Below, piece after piece: positions 5,576-31,070 of a stretch of 64,000 nucleotides of DNA. Under the pieces are notes generated by a model that had not been told where the DNA came from, searched no databases, and saw only the letters and a list, made by a program, of their open reading frames with translations. This stretch comes from Eledone cirrhosa (lineage: Eukaryota), in assembly GCA_964016885.1 (NCBI GenBank), contig OZ024741.1, positions 371,566,001-371,630,000 on the forward strand, read 5' to 3'. The position numbers and the translations under genes are program-made. Every line of letters begins with the position of its first letter. Within the stretch, counting starts at the first letter, position 1.

Positions 5576-6492
5576 TAAATATGAATTCAGCGAGAATCGT
5601 ATTTCGGCGGGTAGAAATAAGCGAAACGCAACGCAATTTCGGAGTTATGCTGGCAAGCGCTCCATGGACCAAAAGAGACCAGAGCAATAAACATAGGTTA
5701 TAAAGGCCATACAACCTGAGACGGCGGTTAAGAAGCTATCAACCACCTAAGCCAAAAAAAAAAACGAGTCAAGCTAAACGGGTCAAACAAAATAAATGAA
5801 ATATTCACCTGGACACTGGAAATGATGGTATAATCCAGTACAGGGTTTCTGCGACACCTAAATCAATAACACTGTCTGCTTAAAAAATAAGCTTTTGGTA
5901 TAATGATCGAACAAGGCTATCACGTTATCAACAGGTATTTTGTTCTGCGCCAGCGTTGTAGATCACACAGTGATTTGTAGCAGTGACAGCACATGTGTAA
6001 CTCACAGGGGAGAAAACTCCAAATTTTGGCAAATGAATTCAGTATGTGTAAATCAATGCAAAAATTGCAAAAACAGCACAAATCGAATTAAGCTCTCGAC
6101 CGGGTAGTTTTTAAAATAAACTTAAGCAATTAATCAGTCAATAGAATTATCTAAAAAAATTAACTGGCTAATTGTAAGACTAATCGGGAGATTAATACAA
6201 ATATAAATTCAGCGAGAATCGTATTTCGGCGGGTAGAAATGAGCGAAACGCAACGCAATTTTTAAGCAGACAGTATTATTGATTTAGGTGTCGCAGAAAC
6301 CCTGTACTGGATTATACCATCATTTCCAGTGTCCGGGGAATATTTCATTTATTTTGTTTGACCTGTTTAGCTTGACTCGTTTTTTTGGCTTAGGTGGTTG
6401 ATAGCTTCTTAACCGCCGTCTCAGTTTGTATGGCCTTTATAACCTATGTTTATTGCTCTGGTCTCTTTTGGTCCATGGAGCGCTTGCCAGCT
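5576..6492 (-). mobile_element. ~620-bp monomer element: partial tandem plus an inverted segment
   Basis: 5576-5640 is repeated directly at ~6200-6261. 6262-6492 is an inverted copy of ~5650-5885. Homologous end-to-end to 30256-31070 on the opposite strand; abuts (TA)n. Confidence 0.75.
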
Positions 6493-6638
6493 AATTCAAA
6501 TGTCGAGCAAACCCGGGTGCTATTTTTAGTGGCGTGAGTTTGCGAGACACGCTAAGGTCTGGAACCATGTGCATTATATATACGCACAGTATCCAGTTTT
6601 TTATTATATTTAGAAGTGATCAGGATACTAATAATTCT

Positions 6639-6720
6639 TCACCCGCTGATGAGCTAGAATGTTGGTATTCCTCTTCACAATTAATATTGCGAAACAGTAT
6701 TATCAAAACTGTTCGGGTGA
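6639..6720 (+). ncRNA. Type I hammerhead ribozyme
   Basis: Stem I TCACCCG/CGGGTGA (7 bp perfect), CTGATGA 6646-6652, stem II closed by GC/GC, GAAA 6691-6694, stem III CAGT/ACTG, GUU triplet. Predicted cut after 6713. Confidence 0.85.
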
Positions 6721-7271
6721 TTGGTAGTTACCACAATTCTGGTTTGTATTTATTTTTCTTGATTTATTCTTAAATTGAGTCTAACAAACCCTATTGTCTG
6801 TAGTTAGTATTCTTTTCACCTTAGCGAATCTGGCCCATTACGATTTGAACACATATGTATATGTCTGTGTTCCTTTTTCTTTTTCGTTCAGTTATATTAT
6901 ATATATATATATATATATACGTGTGTGTGTGTGTGTGTGTGTGTGTGTGTGTGTGTGTGTGTGTGTGTGTGTGTGTGTGTGTGTGTGTGTGTGTGTGTAA
7001 TGCTTTGTTCTTCGGTATTGTTCTTTCATTTTGGTTTTATTTTATTAATCATTCACGCATACACACAAATGTATGTATGTATATATGTATATATGTATAT
7101 ATATCTATATATGTATGTATGTATGTATGTATATATCTATATATGTTTGTATGTATGAATGTATGTATGAATGTAAGTATAAATGCATGTATGTACTGCA
7201 TGTATGCATGTATGTATGTATGTATCCATGTAAGTATGTATGTATGAATGGATATATATATGTATGTATAT

Positions 7272-28790: not shown

Positions 28791-29674
28791 ATATATATAT
28801 ATATATATATATATATATATATATATATATATATATATATATATATATATATATATATATATATATATATATATATTTATATATATATATATGTATATAT
28901 ATATTATATAATGTATATATATATATATCAGTAAGCTGCTCGTCTGTGTATAAGCTGTTTGTCTGTTCGCCACTCTGTGGACGTGGCAATCTATGATTCC
29001 TTTCAAAATCTAGACGACACATATTCAGTAAGCGAACGACACATGGGAGAGACGTCTGGGAACCAACACTGGGAGTTTCTGTGGAAATCATTAACACAGA
29101 ATTATGTTGCAGTTGGAAAAGTTTCGTTATAAATGAAAATAATCATATTTCTAGTATTGACGCCAATAAGTAGACTGCAGTTCCTCATGCTAGACACAAA
29201 GTCGAAGACTCATCACAAATTACTAAGACGGAAGAAGCATCGGGGGAGAGGGATTATACACACACACACACACGCACGCACACACACTCATACACACACA
29301 CATACATATATATATATATAATTAATAAGTATGGACGAGGTGTCAAATTTTCATTAAGTTAATAAACTATGTAAACATATATATATATATGTAAATATAT
29401 ATATATATTTGTTTATTTATTTATATATACATACATATATATGTGAAATATATGTACACATGTGTACACATATTTTATAACATGCGTTTTAGCATCTTTG
29501 CAAGGCAAAGCCTACTTTCAAAATTTCATATACGCCCGAACGCTTAGGCATTTCACCCCACCCTCCATATATATAAATATATATATATATATACACACAT
29601 ATACTCACACTCACACACACAAGCACACACACACACACATATATTTATATATATATATATATATATATATATAT

Positions 29675-30096
29675 AAATGATAGCGTAAGGTCTTTTTTTT
29701 AAATTAAACATACGGTATATTATCAAATATACTATACATACATTCATGTATACATCGCTATTTCAGAGCACCAATCCTAATTTTTAATTTTTGCTCGACC
29801 GGCAATCGCTCTGTATAATCAGTTCCTGATTATTACTGGAATTCTATAAGATCCAGCCTCCATAATTTTCGGCAAGGCAGGGAGTACGTTGCTTTGAGGA
29901 ACACCAACAGTGTGAAACAGAATCTGTCAGCTTCTCTCCCTTCTTTGCCGAAAAAAAGAAGTAAGTGACATAGTCACTACTTTAAAATGATAGCGCAAGG
30001 TCTTCAAAATGTTTTAAATTAAACATACGGTATATTGCCAAATATACTATACATACATTCATGTATACATCGCTATTTCAGAGCACCAATCCTAAT
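29675..30096 (+). mobile_element. Retrozyme-like element: ~310-bp monomer, ~1.35 copies, in (TA)n
   Basis: Direct repeats 29675-29781 and 29985-30096 with a hammerhead between them; no ORF. Confidence 0.75.
29866..29954 (+). ncRNA. Type I hammerhead ribozyme (C3U variant) with extended stem I
   Basis: GCT-TTGAGGA-ACAC(caaca)GTGT-GAAA-CAGAATCTG-TC-AGC. Outer helices AGGGAG/CTCCCT and TTTTCGGCAAGG/CTTTGCCGAAAA. Predicted cut after 29928. Confidence 0.75.
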
Positions 30097-30255
30097 ATAT
30101 ATATATATATATATATATATATCCAGAGAGAGAGAGTGTGTGTGTGTGGGTGTGGTAAGAAACTCTCAGGGGAGCTGGACAAGAGAAGATCTTCAGAGAA
30201 GAAACACGCCTTAAGCGAGTTTTTCGGTCCCTAACTTCTCATATATATATATTTT

Positions 30256-31070
30256 TTCAATCACATATATTTTTATTGTTTGACCCGAATTACTTGGTCG
30301 TTTATTTTGGCTGTGCGGATGATTTGTTTAACCACCATCTCAGTGTGTTTGGTCCTTAACGTATGTTGTAGCTCTGATTCATATGAATCATCGAGCGCTT
30401 GCCACACATCTCGGAAGTTGATTTTCGTTAATTCCTGAGCTGAAGTACGATTCTCGCTAATTTATATTTGTATTAATCTCCAGAGTCTAGCTATGGAGCA
30501 GTTAATTTTATTGATTTTTTTTAGTTGCTTCTATTGACTGATGAATAGCTTTGTTATATTTAACCATTCTGTCGAGAGCTTTATTCGATTTGTGATATTT
30601 TTCATTCTCGCAATATTATACACAACTGAATTCATTCGCCTAATATAGGTGTTGCCTCCCTTGCTGAACTCCACGTGGGGTCAGTAATAGTCACACTTAT
30701 GTATAGCATTTGGAGCAAAAACCCGTTGATAACACGGCTTCCTTGTTCAATCATCTTACCAGAAGCCCAACATTCTTTATGTAGGCGGACAGTACCTGAT
30801 TTATGGAGTCGCAGAAACCCAAATACTGGATTTTACCAACAGTCCAGGGTCCGGGTAAATTTTCAATCACATATATTTTTATTGTTTGACCCGAATTACT
30901 TGGTCGTTTATTTTGGCTGTGCGGATGATTTGTTTAACCACCATCTCAGTGTGTTTGGCCCTTAACGTATGTTGTAGCTCTGATTCATATGAATCATCGA
31001 GCGGTTGCCACACATCTCGGAAGTTGATTTTCGTTAATTCCTGAGCTGAAGTACGATTCTCGCTAATTTA
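30256..31070 (+). mobile_element. ~605-bp monomer element, ~1.35 copies, in (TA)n
   Basis: 30256-30467 is repeated at 30861-31070; diverged homologue of 5576-6261. Confidence 0.8.

Follow-up and report, generated by a model that had tools for sequence, protein, structure and literature searches.

Metazoan non-LTR retrozymes are non-coding, low-GC units that carry a type I hammerhead and are arranged head-to-tail, and their mobilisation by PLEs has been proposed (PMC7229834; bioRxiv 10.64898/2026.07.22.740005). In Xenopus, only 1 of 9 retrozyme dimers cleaved (bioRxiv 10.64898/2026.07.22.740005), and in a purified PLE system the hammerhead acted with protein assistance and insertion did not require it (PMC11167929). 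Hammerheads of Schistosoma PLEs contain a U3-A8 core pair, and those of Cercyon combine it with a 5-bp stem I, a long stem II, an unpaired nucleotide after A9 and a minimal stem III, and are proposed to act as dimers (PMC4209133); a U3-A8 hammerhead was active in vitro (PMC3088659). EN+ PLEs inserted at (TA)n (Naiad, Hydra, Neptune) and non-autonomous Chlamys elements such as MRC1 display partial tandems, an inverted 5'-truncated copy, a fixed 3' end and a microsatellite target (PMC8557442). The ~610-nt repeat described here shares the non-coding, head-to-tail organisation of the metazoan retrozymes and a low GC content (37-38%, below the 45% retrozyme bound). However, its unit of 606-622 nt is longer than the ~170-400 nt of the invertebrate retrozymes studied (although within the preprint's range of 51-972 bp), and its predicted hammerhead core is non-canonical. 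On balance, we consider it probable that this high-copy repeat is a non-autonomous, retrozyme-like PLE passenger with a predicted variant type I hammerhead.

Two copies of the repeat, A and B, lie in the window, by which we mean the entire 64-kb stretch of DNA that was analysed (Table 1). A sequence-only reading of this DNA had described two diverged, colinear monomers with periods of ~620 and 605 nt. This was borne out by units of 622 and 606 nt; the two loci are colinear, with 69% identity over 676 columns when masked DNA was compared by blastn and 72% over ~760 columns when (TA)n was included, and 405 of 642 columns were identical in a global alignment of the units. The same reading had proposed that both loci exceed unit length in partial tandem, and upstream repeats of 56 nt (one mismatch) and 209 nt (two mismatches) were indeed found, giving a head-to-tail content of 1.1 units at locus A and 1.35 units at locus B. 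The common end point that it had placed at (TA)n was recovered as well, in that both copies stop no more than ~7 nt beyond a shared end motif and are followed by (TA)n, and every shared block that it listed was present. All ends at both loci sit at (TA)n, and the optional 30-40 nt tail of PLEs was seen in neither A nor B.

Table 1. Positions of the repeat units, target tracts and hammerhead motifs in the window (hammerheads are predicted)
Feature	Position	Strand	Remarks
Copy A, full unit, 622 nt	5584..6205	-	3' end continues ~7 nt into (TA)n
Copy A, upstream 56-nt 3' fragment of preceding unit (partial tandem)	6206..6261	-	55/56 identical
Copy B, full unit, 606 nt	30463..31068	+	
Copy B, upstream 209-nt 3' fragment	30254..30462	+	207/209 identical to 30860-31068
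(TA)n target tract, 3' end of A	5496..5582	.	
(TA)n target tract, 3' end of B	31069..31180	.	
Variant type I hammerhead in A	5807..5936	-	stem I 5936-5932 with 5811-5807
A, hammerhead core and stem II		-	UUGAUAA 5931-5925; extra C 5924; stem II arm 5923-5851; extra A 5850
A, 3' core and cut triplet		-	GAAA 5849-5846; GUC 5814-5812; predicted cut 5812/5811
Variant type I hammerhead in B	30721..30856	+	stem I 30721-30725 with 30852-30856
B, core and cut triplet		+	UUGAUAA 30726-30732; GAAA 30814-30817; GUC 30849-30851
Inverted 5'-truncated arm, same family	6259..6491	+	head-to-head with A; 96% identity to 5886-5649
Family H, 3' end, second high-copy family	6492..6895	+	fused to inverted arm; ends at (TA)n/(GT)n
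Canonical-core type I hammerhead in H	6639..6720	+	stem I 7 bp, stem III 5 bp

Locus A additionally contains an inverted arm of the same family, a PLE hallmark that is absent at locus B. The anatomy is of the PLE type, because the partial tandem, the inverted 5'-truncated arm and the (TA)n bias match PLE insertions (PMC8557442). The sequence-only reading had overlooked both this arm and the hammerhead-bearing stretch that follows it (6492 to ~6895). The arm joins family H at a point where three letters are shared exactly (as judged from a loose-end consensus); this join is likely a template switch, since the sequence upstream of H differs in 11 contigs. The family was further examined in public sequencing runs, in which contigs and reads were counted as records. 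Three runs of organism A contained 3434, 3714 and 3953 records on the family, and one run of organism B contained 6. Depth over the unit was highest at its 3' end, and loose ends in (TA)n were found in 26 and 24 contigs, while the loose ends of 379 and 184 reads proved to be the unit's own continuation, without new sequence. A pile of read ends at 6206 in a RAD run falls on a possible restriction site and for that reason was excluded as evidence for a terminus.

No conserved ORF had been claimed for the repeat, and the comparison of A with B agrees. Substitutions were distributed by position modulo 3 as 57/62/62, without a coding signature; only 2 of 18 indels were multiples of 3; stops break all six frames of the units; and none of the 14 ORFs within and beside the two loci reached a Pfam cut-off. 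A coding remnant was rejected on these grounds. The units might instead derive from a longer coding PLE, as its pLTRs or 3' ends, with the copies that bear the ORF situated elsewhere, the case that the sequence-only reading had named as fatal to its proposal. The PLE-like architecture would fit, and PLE 3' ends are far commoner than full copies. Against this, no more than 606-622 nt separate one 3' end from the next in either copy, and this whole stretch is colinear and non-coding at 69% identity, which disfavours the case. Moreover, the joints and loose ends listed connect the unit to itself, and in X1 and X3 a mere 1% of the contigs on the family continue into unlike sequence. We therefore regard a longer coding element as very improbable. 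A PLE ORF (RT plus GIY-YIG), which the EN+ PLEs possess, was not seen within the window.

The blocks shared by the two copies turned out to form the 3' half of a predicted type I hammerhead, the 5' half of which lies 75-81 nt upstream. In both units, three predicted helices surround the core and are open at stem I; a U3-A8 pair replaces C3-G8, so that the canonical CUGANGA...GAAA is not present, and an extra C and an extra A intervene where G10.1-C11.1 would adjoin A9 and G12, leaving a C.A at the base of stem II. The pair beyond them (10.1-11.1) is G-C in A and A.C in B, and A has a C.U mismatch at 15.3-16.3, so that one pair close to the core is imperfect in each copy. Stems II and III are long, the latter bulged. 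The cut triplet GUC, an NUH with A15.1-U16.1, is found in A, in B and in the inverted arm, which retains only the 3' half of the motif; above noise, model R1 recovered only A, B and this half motif. Each locus carries one complete variant motif, whereas the preprint reserves 'active' for two consecutive complete hammerheads. With a documented U3-A8 alternative and the other core letters intact, the motif is predicted to be a variant of the type I hammerhead. The earlier statement that the monomer has no canonical hammerhead is thus literally true, but a variant is predicted in both units; likewise, the self-cleaving motif that was postulated would be non-canonical, as suggested, and a ribozyme class of unknown kind is unnecessary because the motif is identifiable as a type I variant.

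Each deviation has a precedent among PLEs when taken singly, but their combination was not found in the literature. The Cercyon hammerheads share U3-A8, the short stem I, the long stem II and the unpaired nucleotide after A9, but differ from the ~610-nt unit in that the latter has a stem II arm of 75-81 nt, an extra A before G12, a long and bulged stem III and no coding capacity. The hammerhead of PLE-X1_cBra (PMC8557442 File S2) has the extra C after A9 and the extra A before GAAA; unlike in the motif described here, its core is the canonical C3-G8 and its stems are short, and it belongs to an autonomous algal element.

When the two copies were aligned, all 14 core letters were identical, compared with 310 of 504 columns outside the motif. 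Among 42 stem cells, 40 pair, with two two-sided changes (one each in stems I and II) and three one-sided changes, while slid controls paired at only 22-43%. In a shuffle control, 117 of 500 shuffles reached the same covariation, two sequences being too few for significance. A descriptor composed after the motif had been seen matched both units, and only 12 and 17 of 3000 shuffles (one each with GUC); it also matched four other, probably chance, loci in the window. Among the variants listed from reads, those at helix positions 5919, 6330 and 6338 keep or restore pairs, and those at 5917, 5924 and 6322 fall on unpaired positions. Unconstrained RNAalifold yielded a three-way junction, with the constrained fold 0.2-3.7 kcal/mol from the MFE. 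Folding z-scores were weak (-2.0 and -0.5 for the motif, -2.7 and -1.3 for the units). The retention of core and pairing over ~35% divergence suggests selection.

The models predict the active shape for the local region only. With at least 40 nt of upstream or at least 45 nt of downstream context, the probability of stem I was mostly below 0.15, and in the whole circular unit it was ~0; there, the 3' strand of stem I pairs instead with the letters following GAAA in both copies. The blocks could accordingly belong to another structure, an extended hairpin that buries the GUC and serves as an RT-binding element or an unknown ribozyme, with the hammerhead match a coincidence. In the ensembles of the whole unit this alternative pairing prevails for A and B alike, conservation is just as high in other blocks outside the motif, and no ribozyme family was among the 23 (around A) and 10 (around B) Rfam matches at E<=10. 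Yet both core halves, the GUC and the two-sided change in stem I are found in each unit at homologous sites. The Rfam scan, which had been proposed as a check and gave no match at gathering score across the window, likewise failed to detect the canonical-core motifs at 6646 and 4781, so its blank is weak evidence. A coincidental match appears to us highly improbable.

It is also conceivable, although we think it rather unlikely, that the same non-autonomous PLE passenger has linear tandem RNA as its template or spreads through template jumps, with no circle and with a motif that is slow, protein-dependent or vestigial. Such copying would accord with the unfavourable long context, with the imperfect pair close to each core, with the dispensability of the PLE hammerhead in vitro (PMC11167929) and with the fact that hammerhead-less Naiad and non-autonomous Chlamys elements form the same partial tandems. 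The selection suggested by the retained core and pairing speaks against it, as does the 5' end of the B fragment (30254), which is located 8 nt to the 3' side of the predicted cut and is preceded by a short (TA)n. The other two 5' ends (6261 and 6259) are away from the predicted cut site, and among the rows listed from the sequencing runs the ends do not accumulate there.

For a retrozyme-like passenger, the following cycle can be proposed. A tandem copy would be transcribed, and the hammerhead would, with fair probability, cut after GUC; because the active fold is predicted for the local region only, cleavage would probably occur during RNA synthesis or with the help of a protein. By analogy with retrozymes, the unit-length RNA may then close into a circle, a step that we hold to be slightly doubtful. 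Very likely, a PLE RT/GIY-YIG endonuclease supplied in trans would nick (TA)n, and reverse transcription would begin at one fixed position inside the unit, 217-228 nt to the 3' side of the predicted cut; at this position a UAUAU in the RNA itself can pair with the target. The fixed end and the target are both visible in the DNA. Copying of more than one unit would yield the partial tandems observed, and second-strand priming or template switching the observed inverted arm and H fusion. Partial tandems are general to PLEs, and uncut dimer RNA or template jumps could also be their source.

Several other candidates were considered and set aside. A hammerhead-less, Naiad-type reading was dropped on finding the U3-A8 motif. 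A CUGAUGA near the start of unit B (~30538) reads CUGAUUA in A and lies in a conserved hairpin without stems I and III, and an HDV-like end motif lacked P3 pairing when compared by eye with the consensus. Metagenome scans gave no match and one match, which was discarded as GC-rich with unrelated flanks; a viral scan gave none. Six exact diagnostic motifs had one, unrelated, match in the consensus files of PMC8557442, and the visible ends of five cephalopod consensi looked, by eye, unlike the unit.

If active, the motif would be a natural hammerhead that joins two rare core deviations and unusually long arms in a high-copy mobile family, and standard scans would overlook whole retrozyme-like families; searches based on CUGANGA would miss this one because its core is non-canonical. 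If the motif is inactive and no circle forms, this is an ordinary non-autonomous PLE family. The question bears on why PLEs carry hammerheads and whether circular RNA yields partial tandems, for which a short unit that lacks coding capacity, and in which RT begins at a fixed point 217-228 nt from the predicted cut, provides a simple substrate. As a tentative extension, which we consider possible but doubtful, the repeat may represent an abundant circular-RNA retrozyme family whose doubly non-canonical hammerhead cuts during transcription and is then switched off in the circle by the conserved alternative pairing, and locus A may be the trace of one insertion during which a single RT moved from one ribozyme-bearing RNA family to another. 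Neither Rfam nor CUGANGA descriptors would detect families of this kind, so that counts of animal retrozymes, and of ribozymes in PLE lineages supposed to lack hammerheads, would be too low. The hammerhead of family H has the cut triplet GUU in this copy and GUC in ~99% of contig depth, and the inner five pairs of its stem I match stem I of B letter for letter.

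The window is eukaryotic DNA rich in microsatellites, with several LINE fragments within. The ~610-nt repeat occurs at two loci, copy A and copy B, and the full units listed in the table confirmed the diverged yet colinear monomers, with periods of ~620 and 605 nt, that the sequence-only reading had described. The units share 69-72% identity by blastn, and 405 of 642 columns are identical in a global alignment. The common end point at (TA)n and the absence of a conserved ORF, both claimed in the same reading, also held. Each copy ends no more than ~7 nt past the common end motif, where its own TATAT merges into (TA)n. 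Substitutions between A and B fell as 57/62/62 on positions modulo 3, and 2 of 18 indels were multiples of three, neither giving a coding signal; moreover, all reading frames of the units were broken, and none of 14 local ORFs passed a Pfam cut-off. Shortly upstream of copy B lies a 109-nt local direct duplication (29676-29779 and 29986-30094, 92%).

Features of the window, in window positions
Feature	Position	Strand	Remarks
Copy A, full unit	6205 to 5584	-	622 nt; last 56 nt of preceding unit upstream
Copy B, full unit	30463-31068	+	606 nt; last 209 nt of preceding unit upstream, 207/209 identical
Inverted, 5'-truncated arm of A/B family	6259-6491	+	96% identical, head-to-head with A; overlooked in the sequence-only reading
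Family H stretch	6492-6895	+	~400 nt of different sequence, joined gaplessly to the arm; runs up to a further (TA)n near 6900
Canonical-core type I hammerhead in H	6639-6720	+	likewise overlooked
Inverted-repeat element	4456-4943		arms 153 nt, 99%; adjoins (TA)n
Second canonical-core type I hammerhead	core 4781, within 4456-4943	+	palindromic stem III loop
Further inverted-repeat insertions	15028-15991, 44802-45430, 26832-27386, 27772-27999		adjoin (TA)n; some with common sequence
LINE reverse-transcriptase fragments	7270-9239, 50747-53714, 9172-11289, 36658-38480	-, +, +, +	Pfam RVT_1, zf-RVT, C2H2 fingers
SINE-like dispersed short repeat	16541-16708, 18015-18195, 39825-40750, 46855-47099, 59819-60004		many copies

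The longest block that the earlier reading had found in both copies is the 3' half of a predicted type I hammerhead, comprising GAAA, a stem III that is bulged and includes a conserved 5-bp hairpin, the cut triplet GUC, and one strand of stem I, 5 nt long. The 5' half, in which the complementary stem I strand precedes UUGAUAA, is found 75 nt upstream in A and 81 nt upstream in B. In this core U3-A8 replaces C3-G8, and stem II is flanked by an additional C after A9 and an additional A before G12. All 14 core letters were identical between A and B (outside the motif, 310 of 504 columns were), and 40 of 42 stem cells paired in the two copies, against 22-43% in slid controls. Stem I showed a two-sided change (U-A in A, C-G in B), and stem II another (A-U and U-A) plus three one-sided changes. 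Unconstrained RNAalifold recovered the three-way junction, and the constrained hammerhead fold exceeded the MFE by 0.2-3.7 kcal/mol. A descriptor that admitted four alternative 3-8 pairs, composed only after the motif had been spotted, matched in 12 and 17 of 3000 unit shuffles (1 each with GUC); elsewhere in the window it matched H, a second high-copy family at locus A, and four loci, the latter probably by chance. Among the read-variant rows listed (40 of 240), none affected core letters, 5919 changed U.G to C-G, 6330 and 6338 restored pairs in stems III and I, and 5917, 5924, and 6322 were at unpaired positions.

Covariation between A and B, a comparison of two sequences only, was not significant (117 of 500 shuffles reached it), folding z-scores were weak, and each copy has one near-core mismatch. 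Under an energy model that ignores tertiary contacts, stem I had a probability of 0.6-0.8 in the minimal region only. With longer flanks it mostly dropped below 0.15, and for the circular unit it was ~0; there, in A and B alike, the 3' strand of stem I paired with the bases that follow GAAA. This alternative pairing may, by analogy with plant retrozymes and viroids (PMC7229834), be an off state that protects a circle, or it may indicate that the ribozyme seldom folds. A second ACCCG, kept in both units at 5784-5776 (-) and 30884-30892 (+), follows the predicted cut at a distance of ~30-35 nt and could be a competitor for the stem I 3' strand. In published work, a hammerhead of a Penelope-like element (PLE) required protein in vitro, and insertion did not depend on the ribozyme (PMC11167929); of nine retrozyme dimers, one cleaved (bioRxiv 10.64898/2026.07.22.740005).

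Family abundance was compared in 4 of the 7 public runs listed, against 5887-6895 at 80% likeness. Runs X1 and X3 are from one organism A sample, possibly that of the assembly; X5 holds RAD reads from a separate study, and X4 is from organism B. Matching records numbered 3434 (X1), 3714 (X3), 3953 (X5), and 6 (X4). Summed depth, which is not copy number, reached 10^4-10^5, where the single contigs listed had ~5-16, and was highest at the 3' end of the A/B family and likewise of H. Among the joints listed (15 of 38), those at 5887/6259-6260 showed the monomer colinear in other copies, one organism B contig included. Among the loose ends listed (24 of 921), 379 reads at 6239 and 184 reads at 6491 carried the unit's own continuation, and at 6195 the loose ends of 26 and 24 contigs were (TA)n. 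In X1 and X3, only 1% of the matched contigs continued into dissimilar sequence.

In 11 X3 contigs a different sequence stood upstream of H; the join between the inverted arm and H is therefore likely a chimera from template switching. The loose ends also included a compensatory stem I variant of the H hammerhead, whose cut triplet was GUC in ~99% of run-contig depth. In this canonical motif, the five inner pairs of stem I match stem I of B letter for letter, a short match that hints at common descent of the hammerheads. H itself may be a retrozyme, or else the end of an autonomous PLE. The partial tandems and (TA)n targets at loci A and B, together with the inverted 5' copy at A, correspond to the anatomy described for EN+ PLE insertions (PMC8557442).

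The 5' end of copy B corresponds to a point 8 nt past the predicted cut, on its 3' side. For a uniform end, the chance of such closeness is ~9 in 606, or 4-5% across the three 5' ends examined, and the remaining two did not coincide with the cut. The copy B end fits run-off at a ribozyme-made 5' end; this would call for either a linear dimer or a circle that had been cut again, so it is better evidence for cleavage than for circularity. For PLE tandems (PMC4209133) and for retrozymes (PMC7229834), copying of a ligated circle beyond one unit has been proposed before, so that the circular-template mechanism of the sequence-only reading is not new but a hypothesis already in print. The fixed 3' end fits internal RT initiation as in one PLE, for which a fixed internal start site in AT-rich targets was shown (PMC11167929).

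Each single oddity of the A/B hammerhead has a PLE precedent: U3-A8 and the extra nucleotide after A9 are shared with Schistosoma Cercyon elements (PMC4209133), and the C/A flank of stem II with PLE-X1_cBra (PMC8557442 File S2). Activity of a U3-A8 hammerhead has been reported in vitro (PMC3088659). The combination of U3-A8, the C/A flank, long arms, and a ~610-nt non-coding unit was unmatched in the literature searched, which was mostly non-subscription. Hammerhead variants associated with PLEs are reportedly the subject of a 2017 paper, which may contain similar motifs. With its predicted ribozyme, the A/B family would work like a non-LTR retrozyme; given that neither locus has two complete hammerhead motifs and that the circle is hypothetical, it is not classed as an active retrozyme. 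Nor is it an autonomous PLE; the A/B repeat is a genuine PLE-type family, high-copy and non-autonomous, for which a variant hammerhead is predicted.

The canonical-core hammerhead at 4781 went undetected in the Rfam scan; the element around it is likely another PLE 3' end, and the further inverted-repeat insertions are possible PLE ends or MITEs. By eye, a degenerate hammerhead-like sequence at 14836-14870 (+) has CUGAUGA and then a hairpin, without GAAA. Several short 3' tails of one LINE family lie in (ATGT)n and (TA)n tracts, and the tail at 5093-5495 adjoins locus A. Resemblance to a SINE suggests that the host may be a cephalopod, a point on which the reading of the A/B family does not rest. 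The first 3 kb (1-3049) are a CCA/CAA-rich tandem array with extreme strand skew.
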